DNA of 64,000 nt from a virus. Taxonomy: Duplodnaviria > Heunggongvirae > Uroviricota > Caudoviricetes. Numbering within the stretch: the first letter of the stretch is position 1; each line of letters starts with the position of its first letter. Positions 47,149 to 64,000 of this stretch are shown piece after piece. A program made the position numbers and the translations under genes. Below the pieces are notes generated by a model. That model was not told where the DNA came from. It saw only the letters and a program-made list of their open reading frames with translations, and did not search any database. The stretch lies in IMG/VR virus record IMGVR_UViG_2974578326_000001, positions 26,711-90,710 of that record; one strand, written 5' to 3'.

Positions 47149-47224
47149 TGGTACCCTGTACAGGATTCGAACCTGTGACCTACGATTTAGAAGATCGTTG
47201 CTCTCTCCACTGAGCTAACAGGGT
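47149..47224 (-). tRNA. tRNA-Arg (anticodon UCU)
   Basis: 76-nt cloverleaf read on minus strand, anticodon loop CTTCTAA, T-loop GGTTCGAATCC, CCA encoded. Confidence 0.8.
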
Positions 47225-47228
47225 TAAT

Positions 47229-47305
47229 TGGTGGCCCTTGCTGGACTTGAACCAGCGACCAATCAGTTATGAGCTGATCGCTCTAACCATCTGAGCTAAA
47301 GGGCC
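47229..47305 (-). tRNA. tRNA-Met (anticodon CAU; elongator, or Ile2 if lysidinylated)
   Basis: 77-nt cloverleaf, anticodon loop CTCATAA, CCA encoded; 4 nt from tRNA-Arg. Confidence 0.75.
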
Positions 47306-47314
47306 ATTTTATTA

Positions 47315-47479
47315 ACAGGATTCATCACAAGGTGCATCACCGCATGTTTCACAAACTATTTTTGAATAGAAACACCCCTCTACTGAATCCCCGTCTAAAG
47401 TATCTACACCACAATCAGGGCAAACACCATTAGGTTTACTTCCATCACTTAAAAGGTTCCAACCATCACAACAAGCCAT
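47315..47479 (-). CDS. Cys-rich 54-aa protein (not in ORF track)
   Basis: 12 Cys incl. CPDCG, CETCGDAPC; AAGG SD upstream of ATG at 47479. Confidence 0.3.
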
Positions 47480-47480
47480 A

Positions 47481-47678
47481 TCACATACCTTTTTTCTTAT
47501 TATTTATATAATTAAACATACCCAAATCAGCACCATTTTTAATTGCAGCAGATATTAGTGTATCTGGGGAAATGTAATCTAAAACCTTGTCGATCTTACC
47601 TTCAATAATAAGACAATGTGCAATATCTGATTCATTATGTTCAAATATCAACTTCTGTAATAACTCAACGTTTCTCAT
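47481..47678 (-). CDS. hypothetical protein
   Basis: 65-aa ORF. Confidence 0.3.
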   Translation of the reverse strand: MRNVELLQKLIFEHNESDIAHCLIIEGKIDKVLDYISPDTLISAAIKNGADLGMFNYINNKKKGM

Positions 47679-47895
47679 TTAGATTTCCTTTTTCTTCACA
47701 CTCATCAGATAATATTGTACCACCAGAAATTACAATTAAAACAAATGCTAAGAAACCCCAAATAATACCACCTATTGGGTATACCAAATATAATTGCTCT
47801 CCTCGAAAACCAATATCATACCTTAGTTTTACAAAGAATGTGCAAATAGTAATTGTTAATACCATAGATAAGATAATCCATGTTCCTTTTTTCAT
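47665..47895 (-). CDS. small membrane protein
   Basis: 76 aa, 2 TM helices. Confidence 0.35.
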   Translation of the reverse strand: MKKGTWIILSMVLTITICTFFVKLRYDIGFRGEQLYLVYPIGGIIWGFLAFVLIVISGGTILSDECEEKGNLNEKR

Positions 47896-47909
47896 ATTTA
47901 TACCTTTAT

Positions 47910-47981
47910 CGCTCCGTGCAGGAATCGAACCTGCAACTACCTCTTAGGAGGAGGTTATTATATCCATTTAACTAACAGAGC
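47910..47981 (-). tRNA. tRNA-Arg (anticodon CCU)
   Basis: cloverleaf on minus strand, anticodon loop CTCCTAA, T-loop GGTTCGATTCC, no encoded CCA. Confidence 0.7.
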
Positions 47982-47986
47982 ATTGA

Positions 47987-57563: not shown

Positions 57564-58112
57564 TTATTTTAACCCTCTCATTGCCTTGGTCATTTCAGCT
57601 AATCTTGAAGTTCGAGTTGCATCATTCTCAATTCTTCTTTCTTCTTCAATAGCCTTATCTTTTATTTCCTGTCTTACCATTTTAAGTGAAAGTTTTAAAA
57701 TCCTCTCTTTTGTTTTTAAATCAACTAAATCCGAGTGCATTAATGTATCAACATGGGCTTTGGCACAATTAGCGTTAGCTCTAACTAGACACACATTACC
57801 GCGCACATAACCTTTTAGGGGGTTTATACGTTCAATAGTTATATCAGGAGCATTTTTAAATTCTTCCCCAGAATAGGCGCAAAGACCATTGCCTTTATTA
57901 AAAAGATCATGTACATCTTTTAAGGTCAAATCAAACTCAACACCCTTTGAGCTAGCATTATTAATTTTATCTAGCATTTTTCTTAGAATAATATAAGGGC
58001 TTAGGCTTGTATATTTCATTGAAGATCCTTTAACTTCCTTGATTGTCATAGAATTTACTGAACATTGCAGTGATAGGGTGTATCTTTTCAGATTCTTTTC
58101 TTTTTCTATCAC
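57564..58112 (-). CDS. HNH-like nuclease domain protein with coiled-coil C-terminus
   Basis: GLCAYSGEEF..ITIERINPLKGYVRGNVCLV..N parallels the HNH motif of 18629-19207. Confidence 0.45.
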   Translation of the reverse strand: MIEKEKNLKRYTLSLQCSVNSMTIKEVKGSSMKYTSLSPYIILRKMLDKINNASSKGVEFDLTLKDVHDLFNKGNGLCAYSGEEFKNAPDITIERINPLKGYVRGNVCLVRANANCAKAHVDTLMHSDLVDLKTKERILKLSLKMVRQEIKDKAIEEERRIENDATRTSRLAEMTKAMRGLK

Positions 58113-58193
58113 GTTCCTCTTTCTCTGCTAATATTCTTTCACGTCTGTCTAATGCAGGTTCAGATAGACCGATTGTTACTATTTCTGGCGCAC

Positions 58194-58628
58194 TCATAAC
58201 GTTGTTAACTCACTTACTGAATAACCAATACCAAAATAAACAGCCTGGTTTAAAGAATGATCAGCGCATATTTTATCTACACCACAGCCATTCTCTTTAA
58301 TGAAGAATTCATAAGCTTTCTTAACACTTGGTCTAACACCAAAATTTTCATGATAGTCCATACCTAGTACAAGAGAATCAATATAATCTTCGGATACAGT
58401 GTTGATACAATCAATCATTGTTTGATCAGAAGGCATTGGTTTATTCTTTGCAAAAGCTTTACAGATGTTTGTTGCATCTTTTTCAATAGAATTTAAAGTT
58501 TGTTGTGTTTCTGGTAAATATTTAGATCGATCTAAGTCTAAAAACTTATCAGAAGCCAATACTGGATGGCATGCGGAAAGCGTCACCGTAGTGACAATTG
58601 CAATAGCTACTGCTCTTAAAGGCTTCAT
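58194..58628 (-). CDS. lipoprotein
   Basis: signal peptide with lipobox LSAC. Confidence 0.55.
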   Translation of the reverse strand: MKPLRAVAIAIVTTVTLSACHPVLASDKFLDLDRSKYLPETQQTLNSIEKDATNICKAFAKNKPMPSDQTMIDCINTVSEDYIDSLVLGMDYHENFGVRPSVKKAYEFFIKENGCGVDKICADHSLNQAVYFGIGYSVSELTTL

Positions 58629-58798
58629 CTTTTACCCCATTTATTTTCATTAGCTTTATTCGTTACCAACTTCTTATAAATAGTTGGCTCTCTATCTGGG
58701 TGACGTTTGGTATTTTCATACAAGTAAGATTGTTCAAAAGCTTTCTTTCTCACTTTCATGATAGCTTTTTTCAAAGCTTGTCCTCTCAACCTTTCCAT
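58625..58798 (-). CDS. small basic protein (57 aa, not in ORF track)
   Basis: ATG at 58798; stop overlaps lipoprotein start (ATGA). Confidence 0.25.
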   Translation of the reverse strand: MERLRGQALKKAIMKVRKKAFEQSYLYENTKRHPDREPTIYKKLVTNKANENKWGKR

Positions 58799-59075
58799 TT
58801 TTCACCTTATGATAATACATTAATAAACCATTAGCTTATTAATATACAATCAGGAAAACCCTCACACAATTTTATGCAAGGGTTTTCAGTTCCTCAATTA
58901 TCATATACTCAAATTAATTAGATAATATCTGAAAATATTTCCTATCCGTCTAACCTATTCTAGAATAGTTGTTTGTGTTAAACGCCTAACAAAGATTTAT
59001 TTTTATACTTTGTTTCTAAGGTTTTGATAGTTAGTAAAGCCTTTCAAACTTTACCTACCGCATGGGAATTACTCC

Positions 59076-59459
59076 TTAAAACTCTACCTTATAGCAGATT
59101 AAAGACATATTAACATCTGTTGCAATTTTATTACCATCTTCAAACAAAGTAACAACACTGTCTTTGATGATCGCATCATAGATATGACCGAGTTTTAAAC
59201 CTTTGTAAGACCACATAGGATTAACAGCGGATAGTTTAAAGCTAAATTTTCCATTGGTATTGATACCAGTGTCTTTTAACCATGATAAGACGGATTTCAG
59301 ATCATCATCTAAATCATAAGATTTTCCAAAGCGACACAGTAGTGTGCAAGCTCCGTCAGGGTGAACATGGATATGGTCTACATCTTCAACCATAAAGCAT
59401 GTATTGTTGTCTTTGATTTCTATTTCTTGGTTAGTTAAATCTACGCTGTTTATATTCAC
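59076..59459 (-). CDS. hypothetical protein
   Basis: 127-aa ORF. Confidence 0.4.
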   Translation of the reverse strand: MNINSVDLTNQEIEIKDNNTCFMVEDVDHIHVHPDGACTLLCRFGKSYDLDDDLKSVLSWLKDTGINTNGKFSFKLSAVNPMWSYKGLKLGHIYDAIIKDSVVTLFEDGNKIATDVNMSLICYKVEF

Positions 59460-59631
59460 TGCATATTCCTCATATGGTTTATGAATTATAATGATAGGAT
59501 TCTTATTTGAAAAGTTTTGGCTGTTAAGAAGAGGAATCCTATGGTTATAATCACACTGGAAAGGTTAAGGGTAAACCCGTATGACTATTAAGAGGCACTC
59601 AATGAATGCCCCTATTTTAGTTACACGGCTG

Positions 59632-60231
59632 TTATGCTTCTTGAGTATATTTAGCCTCAAGTGCTTTGATAGCTTCGGCTTTCTCGGCTTCGAGTGCTTC
59701 GGCTCGTGCTACATCTAACACTAGGTTAATTGCATCACGCATTTCTTGAGACAATGAAGCATTTTCTTTCTCTAACTTTTTAGTTAAAGTTGAAGTTAAA
59801 GTATTGTTCAACCATACAGCAGGGATAAATGCTTTCTTCTCTTTCTCTTCTTTTTCTGGAACAAAGTCCATGAATTCAGTTGATAAGCACTCACGCCCTA
59901 AGTCGCTGTCTAAGAAGTTAACATCTGGTTTATTCTTAGCCACTTTTACAGTGAAGTTGATAACCTTACCGACTTTTTCTTGAGAAATTTTTACAGGTGC
60001 AAATTTCTTTAAGAAAGCCAGCATTGCTTTTTGTTCAGTGCCACCATCTTTAGCCATTTTTAAGATTGGCTCGATGAAAGTGCAGTCACCATGTTGATGA
60101 GTGTGAACGATAGCAGACACTAACAGTAAGTTAGTTTGAGCTTGAGCCTCTTTACGTGATGCAGAAAGAGTTGCGATAGCATTTTGAATGTTAGCTTGAC
60201 CAAAGATTAAGTTAGTTACTTGAATAGCCAT
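59632..60231 (-). CDS. hypothetical protein with Ala/Glu-rich C-terminal coiled coil
   Basis: 199-aa ORF, second gene of leftward operon. Confidence 0.4.
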   Translation of the reverse strand: MAIQVTNLIFGQANIQNAIATLSASRKEAQAQTNLLLVSAIVHTHQHGDCTFIEPILKMAKDGGTEQKAMLAFLKKFAPVKISQEKVGKVINFTVKVAKNKPDVNFLDSDLGRECLSTEFMDFVPEKEEKEKKAFIPAVWLNNTLTSTLTKKLEKENASLSQEMRDAINLVLDVARAEALEAEKAEAIKALEAKYTQEA

Positions 60232-60268
60232 GATATTTCACCTTTTATATACATTTAAGAAATTAGAA

Positions 60269-60595
60269 TTAACGTGCTGGATTGAATGACTTGCCTTTCT
60301 TAGACTCACGCCAATCATTCTTGTTCATTGTTGTTGCTCCGCCAGTTGTGGCGAAAGTCCTAGCGTAGATTTTACGCAAGTGGTTTTTAGCTTGGTTAAC
60401 CTGTAAAGTAGTGAATGGCTTTTCCCATTCCCCAGTTAACTCATTTAAGCTAGGTTTATTGTCGATAACCTCGTTTAAGTTTTTAACAACCTCATGACGA
60501 CGTAAAGCAATATCATTCATGAAATCAGGTTGTTCCTTTTGTAGTCTGGCTCTTCTGGCTATCATTTTGTTTAGCCTTTTAAAGTTTCTAGACAT
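60269..60595 (-). CDS. hypothetical basic protein (first gene of leftward operon)
   Basis: 108-aa ORF adjacent to the noncoding control region. Confidence 0.4.
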   Translation of the reverse strand: MSRNFKRLNKMIARRARLQKEQPDFMNDIALRRHEVVKNLNEVIDNKPSLNELTGEWEKPFTTLQVNQAKNHLRKIYARTFATTGGATTMNKNDWRESKKGKSFNPAR

Positions 60596-61236
60596 TACAT
60601 TTACACCTTTGTTAAATGACCTTTGACGGGCTAGGGATTCGATAGTATAAGTTAACTAGTAACCACTCTAACTAAATCCCTAGCTCAAAGCGTCACTTGC
60701 GCAGTGCTTGCAAGTTTAGCTTGATAGCGAGCAATCATGTATACGGATGCTCATACCCTGTTTTTATTGCTATCGTGTTTTTATAACCGCCCTATAATCT
60801 ACGGTTTCAGAACGTTGCATTGTCACCAATGTTATCAACTAAACTGATTTAGGCTTTTTCCCCCGTTTACGGCTGGGGACGCTTTCACCTGATACGCTCG
60901 ATCCGATTTGGCACGCTTTGGATCTCAACCTGCGATATGTTTTTATGGTCATTCATTACTCATTAGTTATAAACCACTTACATTTATAACCACTTTCACG
61001 GTTGCCAGACCCGACAAACGGTGCTTTGTTTGTCATAGCTTTTAACATTCCCGTACTCACCTACTCAAAAACGCTTGCAATCTACTTGAGAAGCATAAAA
61101 CCGATTTACAATGAGAGCTTTCGAGTGCAATCAGGGCGCTATCGAATCCCTTACTACTTGCCGACTATCTTATATTAAGTTAATCAGCTTGTCAACCCCT
61201 TTTATTATCGTCTACTATTTAAGCAGATTGTACAAT

Positions 61237-61273
61237 AAAACTACAAATCATTATTGCACATAATATATAAGGG
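61237..61273 (+). promoter_or_regulatory. copy 4 of conserved promoter/operator-like motif, opposite orientation
   Basis: aaaactacaaatcattattgcacataatatataaggg = reverse complement of copies 1-3. Confidence 0.45.
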
Positions 61274-61353
61274 ATAACTCTAATCACTGTTACCTATGAT
61301 AAACTAACCAATTATGAAAGTCAATACTTATAATTGATTAATCTATCTAGTTA

Positions 61354-61641
61354 CTACACTAACAACTTAATGGATATTCTAAACCCATCTTGTTTAAAGG
61401 GAATCACTATCTTTTTCCCTTGCTTACCAGTATATAACTTTTTAACCTTGCCTGTCAATAGCTGATTTAATCTTGTACCGCCAGCCATTAATGACAAAGG
61501 ATAGTTTATATTGATATACGCTTGTAAATGATTTAAAGATTTAAACTTCTTATTGAGATAATTGCCGTTCTCATTAAGAATTCTTTCATCTAACAAACGA
61601 TATTCAATAACGTCTATTCTTTTCGGCTTGTCTTTTCTCAT
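61354..61641 (-). CDS. possible small basic protein inside noncoding region
   Basis: 95-aa ORF with weak SD. Confidence 0.25.
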   Translation of the reverse strand: MRKDKPKRIDVIEYRLLDERILNENGNYLNKKFKSLNHLQAYININYPLSLMAGGTRLNQLLTGKVKKLYTGKQGKKIVIPFKQDGFRISIKLLV

Positions 61642-62439
61642 GATAGTTTTACCTTTTAATTTACACCTTAACAGTGCTATAAAATGATTAGTTTATCATA
61701 AGCAACAATGATTAGATTTTTAAAGAGCTTTACTACTTGCCCTTAATTATACAGATAACCTTTTAAGCTGTCAACTATTATCTTTCGAGATTCTCATCAA
61801 CTTTCTTACTAAACACCTAACAATCATAAGAGTGCATCAGTGTAAACTCAACGCTTGCCCAGTTGATCTTACTACCTACTTGCTAATAATTAACAAATGG
61901 TTATCCATATTATTAAAGAGCATTACTACTTACTGCTTGCGATACATCATATAACGCTTGTATCACGTTGTAAAGGATTAATTAACGCTACCCTAAACAA
62001 CTATCTACTTGCTTGTTTGCTTTCGACGTAGTGCATTACACACTATTCTAATCTATCTGTCAAACATATTTTTAAACTATTTTATAACTTATTGATTTAT
62101 ATATTAATTTACTTGATCCATTAACTTATCTTATCTATTTTTTCCTTTACTATACATCACACGATTAACATAATTTAATAGTATTGTCTAGTTATTATCA
62201 CGGATATAGTAACTTGTGACAAGTCATTGAAACCGTGTTTTGTTATCCTATCAAATATTATAATATCCTACACACTGAAAGAAAAAGAAAGAAAATACTA
62301 TGTTTATCAATCAATAATTATCAAGGTAATAACTCTCATATAATAGGTGGCGAATTGATAGATTATGAATAAGCATGCAATCTATCAACCAACGATTGAG
62401 TAAGCAAGAATAACGGATACATGGCTTGTCATACATACC

Positions 62440-62970
62440 CTAATGACTACCTACTATGGAACTATTAACACGGTAAACAATGGCTATGGAATGAATGACT
62501 ATGCAAGTTACGTGAATGTTTATGCACTATGAGATAACACTGTATGATATGGCATACGACAATATGACCAGGCTATGAGAACGTGAGAGATAACCTATTG
62601 ATATTATTAACACTATGGGATGGTTACGTGAATGATACACTGGTTTACTATGGGATGTGATTATGATTAATGAGATGGTATGATTATTTATACAGTGTAA
62701 TAAATTAATTAGATTAATCAATGGTTTACTATGGAATAATATATTGTCTACCATTTAGGATAATTCCTATTTACTGGTGGATTGTGAAGTGATACAATGT
62801 TAACCCCTTTCCCCCTTTTACGAAAACGAGAGAGCGTGCTAGACTACCATACCACGAGAAGGAGATATAAGAATGAGGATATCCCTATATTATACATGTG
62901 TGAGTGACAAGGACTATGGAACTATTGACTATGAGATATGACCTGCCATCAACTGCTATGAGGTGGCATC
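62440..62970. repeat. iteron-like array: ~10 copies of CTATGRG / ACTATGGAACTATT(A/G)AC
   Basis: motif copies at 62455, 62484, 62500, 62527, 62573, 62613, 62647, 62718, 62905, 62925, 62956. Confidence 0.55.
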
Positions 62971-63395
62971 AATCTTTATCAGAGTAACTAGAATATGACA
63001 TGGCATTATCCTCATCAACACTATTTATTTTATTTCCAGTGTAAGGCGTAAGATTTTAAGAAAAAGTGTACTAACGTACATGTGACTATAAGAAATAATC
63101 TCTTAGGAATAATACTCTTATAGTCTTTCTCTGAATTAAGAGAGATTAGAGATTTATTAACCTCTTAATTCTTTTTCTATTAACTCTTCCTTACTTTCAT
63201 TGCTTCCTTTATGACCTCCCATCTAGCAGTGTCTATATGACATCCCATCAATCTAACCTTCCTTTCTTCAGAGTAAAATAAAATTATTTTGTAATGATTT
63301 CTTTTATCAGAGACTAGAATAGGTTGAAGAGCTTCCAAGGTTTGTATCAGAGGGAAGTAGCGGAGGTGGAGGGAAATGTTTTAAGGAGTGATGTA

Positions 63396-63764
63396 ATGAC
63401 AGACAATGTAAATGAAAATGGTCGTAACATCCAAACTGGTAAGTTCTTAAAAGGTAACAGTTTTGGTAAAGGTCGTCCTAAAGGTTCTCGGAATAAAATG
63501 ACACAACGTATGCTTGACAGAGTTTGTGAACGAAGTGAAGATGGTTTGTCTATGGAAGAGATTATGATGGATATTGCACAAGATCCTAATATGCCTGCTG
63601 AGTTAAGGTTCAAAGCTGCTGCCAAGGTTGCAGATATTGTTTATCCTAAAGCTTCCTCTGTTGAAGTTAAGATGGATGATAAAGAGCAAATGACTAAAGC
63701 ACAGATTGATGATCGACTGAAGATGTTACTGGCTGAAACAGTTAAACGAGATAAAAAAGAATAA
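63396..63764 (+). CDS. putative DNA-binding protein (GRPKG motif; possibly terminase small subunit-like)
   Basis: AAGGAG SD 8 nt upstream of ATG 63396; motif GNSFGKGRPKGSRNK; track start 63324 is TTG and unlikely. Confidence 0.4.
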   Translation: MTDNVNENGRNIQTGKFLKGNSFGKGRPKGSRNKMTQRMLDRVCERSEDGLSMEEIMMDIAQDPNMPAELRFKAAAKVADIVYPKASSVEVKMDDKEQMTKAQIDDRLKMLLAETVKRDKKE

Positions 63765-63817
63765 CCCCGACAGGGAGAGCGAAGTCCCCGCTCTTAAAAA
63801 TATAGGGACTTTTCTAT

Positions 63818-63891
63818 AGGGGATTAGTATATTGGTATTACAATTGCCTCCAAAGCTAGAGAAGAGGGTTCAATTCCTTCATCCCCTGCCA
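63818..63891 (+). other. tRNA-like element with canonical acceptor stem, T-arm and CCA but non-canonical anticodon arm
   Basis: AGGGGAT...GAGGG-TTCAATT-CCTTC-ATCCCCT-G-CCA; 7-bp acceptor and T-loop TTCAATT fold, anticodon stem cannot be drawn. Confidence 0.3.
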
Positions 63892-63954
63892 ATTAGTCAT
63901 GCTTACTGGGGCGGACGTTAAACTAAGAATCCAGTCTTAATAAAGTAAGGAGAA

Positions 63955-63985
63955 GGCCTCTCAGGAGGCCGTTTCTTTTTGTTTG
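63955..63985 (+). terminator. rho-independent terminator (plus strand)
   Basis: GGCCTC-TCAG-GAGGCC hairpin followed by GTTTCTTTTTGTTTG. Confidence 0.6.
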
Positions 63986-64000
63986 TAAATTTTTTTCGTC

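Follow-up and report, generated by a model that had tools for sequence, protein, structure and literature searches.

Predicted genome ends, early promoters, and a structured leader RNA in the strand-switch region of Proteus phage Privateer

The window analysed here is a stretch of 64,000 nucleotides from the genome of Proteus phage Privateer (MT028297.1, 90,710 bp; Grimontviridae, genus Privateervirus), with window position equal to genome position minus 26,710, and the window end coinciding with the end of the record, which was opened at terL. Our subject is the region between gp141 and gp147. The structural genes of Privateer run rightward (genome positions 36 to 25,862) and all other genes run leftward up to gp141, the first early gene, which ends at 60595; on the other side of the region, gp147 starts rightward at 63396 and is followed by tRNA-Trp and terL, bearing out the strand switch reported in a first-pass annotation of this DNA. 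The GC-skew switch falls where the gene strand changes, and is therefore uninformative on replication. The region was found in five more genomes at 88–93% identity (3H10_20, vB_CsaP_009, YP1, P59, and J3S), which together with Privateer constitute the six genomes compared below; IMG/VR holds vB_CsaP_009 as the only relative, and a scan of metagenomes returned five loci. Taken as a whole, it combines terminal and control elements in a general pattern already known, set apart by a longer, array-filled predicted repeat and an undescribed structured leader RNA. The first-pass annotation was largely right in what it observed, namely repeats and a strand switch in a stretch that it took, in error, to be gene-free, and partly right in its interpretation of the stretch as a replication origin, genome terminus, or regulatory hub. 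The features of the region, in window coordinates, are as follows.

60596–61161, minus strand: structured 5′ leader RNA of the first early operon, ~566 nt, from RNAalifold covariation
Within 60839–61048, 62311–62436, and 62527–62754: annotated mini open reading frames gp142, gp143, gp145, and gp146, probably not genes
61167–61195, minus strand: promoter E1, TTGACA-17-TAAGAT, with predicted transcript start GCAAGTAGTAA at 61161–61151; -35 and -10 invariant in the six genomes
61276–61719, minus strand: inverted repeat around gp144, from a sequence repeat search (84% complementarity)
61296–61324, minus strand: promoter-like site E2, TTGACT-17-TATCAT, a sigma-70 match
61354–61641, minus strand: gp144 (QIN94934), a 95-residue gene, from codon-position variation and its intact state in relatives
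61429–61458, minus strand: promoter-like site E3, TTGACA-18-TATACT, inside gp144
61746–61774, minus strand: promoter E4, TTGACA-17-TATAAT, with predicted transcript start GCAAGTAGTAA at 61740–61730
61946–61974, minus strand: promoter E5, TTTACA-17-TATGAT, with predicted transcript start GCAAGCAGTAAGTAGTAA
62035–62063, minus strand: promoter-like site E6, TTGACA-17-TGTAAT, read from the sequence, with a conserved -35 hexamer
62064–62324, no strand: AT-rich spacer, GC ~27%, aligning with phage 7-11 at 64% identity over 276 nt
62194–62222, minus strand: promoter-like site E7, TTGTCA-17-GATAAT, overlapping the 13-bp palindrome ACTTGTGACAAGT at 62212–62224
62377–62840, no strand: predicted direct terminal repeat, ~464 bp, with left end 62377 and right end ~62840 placed by homology
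62453–62740, plus strand: class A array, (A)CTATGR(G/A)A, 8–12 irregularly spaced copies, all oriented the same way and all within the predicted terminal repeat
62804–62884, plus strand: most widely conserved non-coding block, a C-rich core followed by AATGAGGATATCC, from cross-genus comparison
62936–63251, plus strand: class B repeats, five copies between the right edge of the predicted repeat and terS, candidate TerS-binding sites
63048–63073, plus strand: late-promoter-like site GTAAGA-16-ACTA, in a block (63024–63082) 81% identical to 7-11
63291–63316, plus strand: predicted late promoter GTAATG-16-ACTA, agreeing exactly with the late consensus of 7-11, with gp147 starting ~80 nt downstream
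63396–63764, plus strand: gp147, probable small terminase subunit, from a five-homologue profile against PDB and from gene order

We favour, with moderate confidence, the explanation that this region represents the joined physical ends of a linear, terminally repetitious genome of the phiEco32 type, circled by assembly, together with control elements belonging to each end. The record of phiEco32 carries a direct terminal repeat (DTR) of 193 bp, its first 193 nt being identical to its last 193 nt, and the C of AAATAA(A)CGG within AAATAAACGG is nt 38 of this repeat. In the linear records BUCT695 and APT65, counting from the first base likewise gives 38 for AACGG C; metagenome contig L020, counted from its start, gives 39, a value also obtained for the predicted repeat of ECO319P1, whose raw contig stops 7 nt inside it. 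The record or contig starts or ends of these four independent relatives lie at, or a few bases from, the homologous left-end position. In Privateer AACGG C is found at 62414, and the nt 38 rule therefore predicts a left end at 62377, where the sequence rightward of the boundary, GCAATCTATCAACCAACG, aligns with the first bases of BUCT695, GGAACCCATCTACCAACG. At the other side, CCCCCTTTTACGAAAACGAGAGAGCGTGCT followed by AG aligns with the end of the phiEco32 DTR, CCCCCTTTTTAGGAAACGCGCGGCGAGCGGCT followed by AG, placing the predicted boundary between 62840 and 62841. Positions 62804–62840 align with the right end of the phiEco32 repeat, with a C-run/T-run core ~21 nt from the boundary. This C/T motif forms the core shared by 30 Kuravirus DTRs (PMC9965538), and sequencing reads of SU10 fall sharply ~21 nt past it (PMC4281155); both SU10 and YF01 have sharp ends, with the conserved core at repeat positions 130–170 (PMC4281155, PMC9965538). 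The larger block at 62804–62884 is matched by blastn in LAh_6 and APT65 at 69–72% identity, and is also present in 7-11, ECO319P1, BUCT695, and metagenome contigs L020, L022, and L023. The earlier suggestion of a genome terminus or terminal repeat is thus supported by comparison, through the two phiEco32-type landmarks and the starts of relatives, from which we infer the physical ends themselves. Immediately right of the C-rich core, an alternating purine/pyrimidine tract is seen in Privateer (GAGAGAGCGTGC, 62820–62836), phiEco32 (ACGCGCGG), and 7-11 (CGTGTGCGTGTGTG, record positions ~1215–1230).

Beyond the two landmarks, Privateer shares with phiEco32, SU10, and YF01 the location of the repeat between leftward early genes and rightward terS–terL, homologous TerS and TerL proteins, and short G-rich or TATGG repeats in or beside the terminal repeat. 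The repeat predicted for Privateer is, however, ~464 bp long compared with 193 bp in Kuravirus, and its interior is unalignable and filled by a TATGR array; furthermore, the ends of phiEco32, SU10, and YF01 have been mapped experimentally, whereas those of Privateer are predicted from homology. Several other points weigh against this explanation. The 193-bp phiEco32 repeat shows no alignment to Privateer beyond the two short landmarks, the right boundary is drawn solely from Kuravirus phages, which belong to a different family, and the point at which a relative's record opens may reflect a choice of its authors and not a measurement. Additionally, the Privateer paper reports a PhageTerm call of “novel ends type” with no positions stated (PMC7881722), and the Privateer TerL is annotated as P22-like, P22 being a phage that packages by headful.

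Other candidate positions for an end were considered and rejected. Short Logan contigs from two runs end at 62698, but these are assembly breaks, given the A/G polymorphism at 62699 and the presence of further break points in common. A left boundary at 62699, drawn from likeness to TACAGTGCT of phiEco32, has been superseded by the AACGG landmark, and the start of the J3S record (62942) lies inside a repeat and is probably arbitrary. The genome of 3H10_20 carries, at window position 61729, a run of Ns and ~95 extra bases resembling a third ~193-bp promoter unit (ATTATTAAAGAGCA TTTACTACTTGCCC); the gap was rejected as a terminus and attributed to assembly, and the extra bases may reflect either a promoter-unit count that differs from strain to strain or an assembly disrupted by the repeat. 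In the GenBank record of ECO319P1 the first 55 nt equal the last 55 nt, a leftover assembly overlap.

Under the terminal-repeat explanation, the order of modules read leftward from the predicted right end at ~62840 would be the ~464-bp terminal repeat (62377–62840) with its one-orientation TATGR heptamers, the conserved AT-rich spacer, seven tandem inward-facing host sigma-70 early promoters (62222 to 61167), from several of which transcripts would begin with GCAAGTAGTAA, gp144, the 566-nt structured leader RNA, and the early operon. In the other direction, starting at the predicted left end (62377), the same repeat would be followed by the conserved block, the five TATGAC..CATCAA repeats, two late promoters for a phage ECF-like sigma factor, terS, tRNA-Trp, and terL. 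The right end would enter the cell first, host RNA polymerase would fire from the promoter cluster in the manner of the left end of T7, and late in infection the phage sigma factor would drive terS and terL. TerS may then bind class B, a short way in from the left end and in a position like that of lambda cosB, with TerL cutting concatemers at the repeat boundaries. The same module order is found in six other lineages.

The layout of the early side resembles that of the T7 left end, where a terminal repeat (1–160 of the T7 record), a one-orientation heptamer array (CCTAAAG, 175–341), tandem inward sigma-70 promoters (A1–A3, 498–750), and a leader of several hundred nt precede the first early gene (gene 0.3, at 925). 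The Privateer arrangement is a mirror image of this, lying at the predicted right end, and differs in several respects. The T7 heptamers recur every 13 nt and lie mostly outside the repeat, whereas those of Privateer are irregular and lie inside the predicted repeat; seven promoter-like sites are present in Privateer compared with three in T7; and Privateer uses a phage sigma factor, in contrast to the single-subunit RNA polymerase of T7, a member of the Autographiviridae. The resemblance is one of layout and not of ancestry, with the sequences and proteins of the two phages being unrelated.

The class A repeats fall entirely within the predicted repeat. The first-pass annotation counted about ten copies of the heptamer CTATGRG; its clustering on the plus strand holds, with six plus-strand copies in the window, all at 62527–62962. 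The shorter forms are more strongly enriched, CTATGR occurring ten times on the plus strand and never on the minus strand of 62440–63260 (0.52 expected), and TATGR 19 times on the plus strand and once on the minus strand of the same interval (2.8 expected), both within and alongside the predicted repeat, whilst the extended form ACTATGGAACTATTRAC has two copies, at 62453 and 62913. Repeat copy number differs through indels among the six close relatives, and analogous repeats occupy the same place in other genera, namely GTATGGATA in 7-11, GCATGGRWA in APT65, and TATGG in phiEco32. Tandem Repeats Finder detected no head-to-tail array, and no identical repeats at regular repeat-spacer intervals were seen; a CRISPR-like or tandem array is accordingly rejected, in agreement with the earlier description of the repeats as not CRISPR-like.

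Alternatively, the TATGR array and the neighbouring AT-rich stretch could form an iteron-type or transcription-activated replication origin, in which a phage initiator would recognise the repeats and unwind the AT-rich DNA, an arrangement that could coexist with a terminus. The direct repeats do adjoin a 380-bp stretch (62061–62440) of 26.6% GC that still aligns with 7-11, strong predicted promoters would fire through it, and in the T7 record the phiOL promoter, to which secondary origins of T7 have been linked, lies at the corresponding position. However, iterons are expected as three or more direct repeats of ~17–22 bp at regular spacing, and those of Privateer are 7–17 nt long, with a core of 7 nt that reaches 17 nt in some copies only, at an unphased spacing of 15–81 nt. 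No initiator gene is adjacent, the sole local gene being an ORFan without a recognisable domain, DnaA boxes are not enriched (six found, ~4 expected), and the array lies inside a segment homologous to a mapped terminal repeat. We consider an origin here unlikely, and the iteron-bearing replication origin put forward in the first-pass annotation is not supported.

The class B repeats, TATGAC(C/A)T(G/C)(G/C)CATCAA, form a second family of five copies at 62936–63251 that the first-pass annotation had not described. The motif holds the same position in 7-11 and in metagenome relatives, with variants in APT65, LAh_6, and phiEco32, and takes on GCATGA and CCTTTA forms in more distant phages, in which TerS has diverged further as well. 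Both motif classes keep their position and orientation across genera, in contrast to other non-coding sequence, which aligns in a few short blocks only. The gene immediately downstream, gp147, probably encodes the small terminase subunit, with the PDB matches of a five-homologue profile all being small terminases (NV1, 7JOQ, E = 0.0012; PaP3, 6W7T, E = 0.013), and the gene lying directly upstream of tRNA-Trp and terL. Homologues of gp147 in Kuravirus are 47–54% identical to it, and gp3 of Kuravirus YF01 has likewise been assigned as a small terminase (PMC9965538). The class B repeats are hence candidate TerS-binding sites by analogy with lambda cosB, whose TerS-binding sites R1–R3 lie between the cut site and the terS gene; in Privateer also, short repeats of the same orientation would lie just inside the left end and directly upstream of terS. 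There is no sequence or protein homology between the two systems, however, and the ends of Privateer are predicted to be a direct repeat, unlike the cohesive ends of lambda, and TerS is the presumed binding protein of the Privateer repeats.

Two predicted late promoters accompany the class B repeats. The late consensus of 7-11, GTAAtg-16-aCTA, is read by the phage sigma factor gp47 and has been validated in that phage (PMC8948821), and the Privateer sigma factor is 65.9% identical to 7-11 gp47. The exact consensus has two matches in the Privateer genome, one at 63291–63316, which is invariant in the six genomes, and one upstream of the major capsid gene; the looser pattern GTAAKN-16-ACTA occurs eight times in the window compared with 1.77 expected, and none of 100 shuffles reached eight; one of the eight is the site at 63048–63073. 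Two sites matching the 7-11 type, and predicted to be read by the phage ECF-like sigma factor, precede the probable terS. Phage 7-11 belongs to the same family and has a similarly long, divergent non-coding region of ~2.8 kb, with an exact late consensus upstream of its terS homologue, and with the class B repeats and the C-rich block conserved; its promoters have been validated experimentally, whereas those of Privateer are predicted from sequence.

The proximity of these promoters allows a further explanation, in which TATGR and TATGAC..CATCAA serve as operators, enhancers, or decoys that a phage transcription factor or the phage sigma holoenzyme would bind, in the early-to-late switch and not in packaging. 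The repeats flank the two late promoters, T-tract and CAG(A/T)GTAA elements similar to the late -35 context recur among them, and the repeats of the equivalent region in 7-11 were earlier proposed to be promoters (PMC4331800). Experiments in 7-11 nevertheless yielded a different late consensus (PMC8948821), the full bipartite late motif occurs at two sites of the region only, and class A lies inside the predicted terminal repeat, 300–600 nt from the nearest late promoter. It seems doubtful that such a switch would account for the repeats.

Less probable by far is a pac site for headful packaging of a circularly permuted genome without fixed ends, the repeats serving as TerS boxes as in SPP1 or P1. 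This would suit the annotated similarity of TerL to the P22 terminase and the location of the repeats directly upstream of terS; however, Privateer TerL is ~60% identical to the TerL of Kuravirus (PMC7881722), phages with exact 193-bp repeats and sharp ends, both repeat-boundary landmarks are conserved in Privateer, and the record and contig starts of relatives coincide with the left boundary. Finally, the notion that the repeats arose by chance or reflect low complexity in AT-rich non-coding DNA, in keeping with an unremarkable count of CTATGRG over both strands of the whole window (19 found, 13 expected), is refuted by their clustering (plus-strand CTATGRG copies all within 440 nt), their polarity (a TATGR strand bias of 19:1), and the conservation of their position and orientation across genera.

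On the early side of the predicted terminal repeat, seven promoter-like sites at 61167–62222 all face leftward. Six sites matching the sigma-70 consensus at 10 or more of 12 positions fall within 1.2 kb, all on the minus strand, compared with 72 genome-wide on both strands, and E4 is the sole 12/12 match in the 90.7-kb genome. The -35 hexamers of the early sites are invariant in the six genomes. The second motif reported in the first-pass annotation, TTACTACTTGC, is the reverse complement of GCAAGTAGTAA, and its recurrence is confirmed, both exact copies of the window and two of the four one-mismatch copies falling in 61151–61940, all on the plus strand. At the strong sigma-70 promoters E1, E4, and E5, the minus-strand reading of the motif, GCAAGTAGTAA, follows the -10 hexamer at a distance of 5 nt, and the form GCAAGYAGTAA is found 5 nt past the -10 at three promoters and nowhere else in the genome. 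These data support the identification of the TTACTACTTGC motif as the predicted +1 region of strong, conserved leftward sigma-70 promoters, and with it the earlier suggestion of a dense early-promoter field. At the equivalent place in 7-11, upstream of gene 151, sigma-70 promoters have been confirmed by primer extension (PMC8948821), although the early promoter sequences of the two genera do not align, and the GCAAGTAGTAA start motif of Privateer is not seen in 7-11. The perfect palindrome ACTTGTGACAAGT, which overlaps the -35 hexamer of E7, could be an operator.

The leader extends from the predicted start site of E1, the early promoter closest to it, as far as the gp141 ribosome-binding site, has a GC content of 41% compared with 34.5% for the genome, and is a structured RNA with strong covariation, undescribed and not in Rfam. 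RNAalifold applied to the six genomes yields 164 pairs with 99.7% of cells paired, and compensatory double changes at 15 pairs in ten hairpins, a count equalled by 0 of 500 shuffles and compared with 0–2 in slid controls. The structure is kept on nine sequences, including three independent Logan assemblies that were not used in its derivation. On the minus-strand reading 99.7% is paired (13% G-U), compared with 86.8% on the plus-strand reading, which points to the minus strand as the source of the RNA. Among neighbouring control segments, both coding and non-coding, most show 0–2 compensatory pairs and many broken ones, the exception being the minus strand of 61740–62060, which is ambiguous, with six compensatory and 18 broken pairs. 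The variants of the leader are recombining allele blocks shuffled among strains, with few independent events per hairpin, and the long-range helices are invariant, the covariation being drawn from the hairpins. The leader of ERR1301465 (60596–61161, alignment A3) mixes J3S-type and YP1-type blocks; across columns ~237–384 of this alignment about a quarter of positions differ with nearly all pairs kept, two helix 10 cells being unpaired.

The leader shows no codon periodicity and no match in Rfam 15 at E ≤ 1, large phage-associated RNAs included. Rfam and tRNA scans of 58000–64000 returned only tRNA-Trp and one chance-level match to mir-2060, which was rejected (59103–59189, E = 0.82, 20.6 bits against a gathering threshold of 54.5), situated beyond the leader and within a coding sequence. 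Rfam likewise has no match to the leaders of 7-11, SE131, and LAh_6; leaders of different genera do not align with one another by blastn or nhmmer --max, and the first early proteins are not homologous between genera. The leader of the 7-11 group, ~1.1 kb, shows moderate covariation (eight compensatory, 13 one-sided, and seven broken pairs), and that of Lahexavirus, ~1 kb, is very conserved, with too little variation for covariation. Within the 7-11 group, the promoter-proximal half of the leader (~500 nt) is swapped for unrelated sequence between strains (L011 and L010 compared with L026, L019, and L025), and the gene-proximal half (~500 nt) is kept at 86–92% identity.

As to function, our best guess is that the leader acts in cis, stabilising or processing the early mRNA and regulating how gp141 is translated; it could possibly serve in antitermination or as a host-factor sponge. 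It is also conceivable, although we would not expect it, that the leader represents a new family of large structured phage RNAs with a function of its own, beyond that of a stabilising untranslated region, such as processive antitermination over the ~60-kb leftward unit or sequestration of a host factor, in which case the analogous leaders of at least 1 kb in other Grimontviridae genera, unrelated in sequence, would occupy the same position. Lying directly downstream of the strongest phage promoters and absent from Rfam, the leader makes a strong candidate for an element of host takeover or transcription control early in infection.

Contrary to its first description as gene-free, the region contains a real gene, gp144, which is under purifying selection and is an ORFan of the genus Privateervirus. 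Its reading frame is annotated and intact in all six related genomes, with its reality indicated by the distribution of variable columns over codon positions 1, 2, and 3 (5/2/28), and the protein is 97–100% identical among relatives whilst the DNA differs by ~6%. No Pfam, PHROG, or PDB match was found, and a single matching cluster was recovered from 5.8 billion proteins, with no relatives beyond the genus. Codon periodicity is not seen in the rest of the region, and gp142, gp143, gp145, and gp146 are rejected as genes, with stops or frameshifts in close relatives and no codon-position bias; of the GenBank annotations, these four mini open reading frames should be dropped and gp144 kept. A 38-nt inverted repeat flanks gp144 (61276–61313 and 61682–61719), the arms being 84% complementary and the single variable position giving a U-G wobble on the minus-strand reading. 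Its arms could pair as a long-range RNA duplex in the early transcript, for example as an RNase III site. Each arm also holds a -10-like TATCAT.

Whilst the published Privateer analysis described the ends only as “novel”, the present work assigns predicted positions to the ends, to the promoters, and to candidate packaging sites, and the landmark rule, with AACGG C at nt 38 and the C-rich core at the right edge, could serve to place ends across Grimontviridae and Kuravirus. Privateer-like phages are considered for the treatment of Proteus catheter infections, and known ends and packaging signals would aid genome engineering and the judgement of transduction risk.

The tRNA-Trp gene between the probable terS and terL lies at 63818–63891 and is followed by a terminator-like two-way hairpin (63955–63970), with six tRNAs occupying the same spot in 7-11 and a tRNA-Thr in BUCT695. 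Three more tRNA genes (Arg-TCT, Met-CAT, and Arg-CCT) are clustered on the minus strand at 47149–47982.

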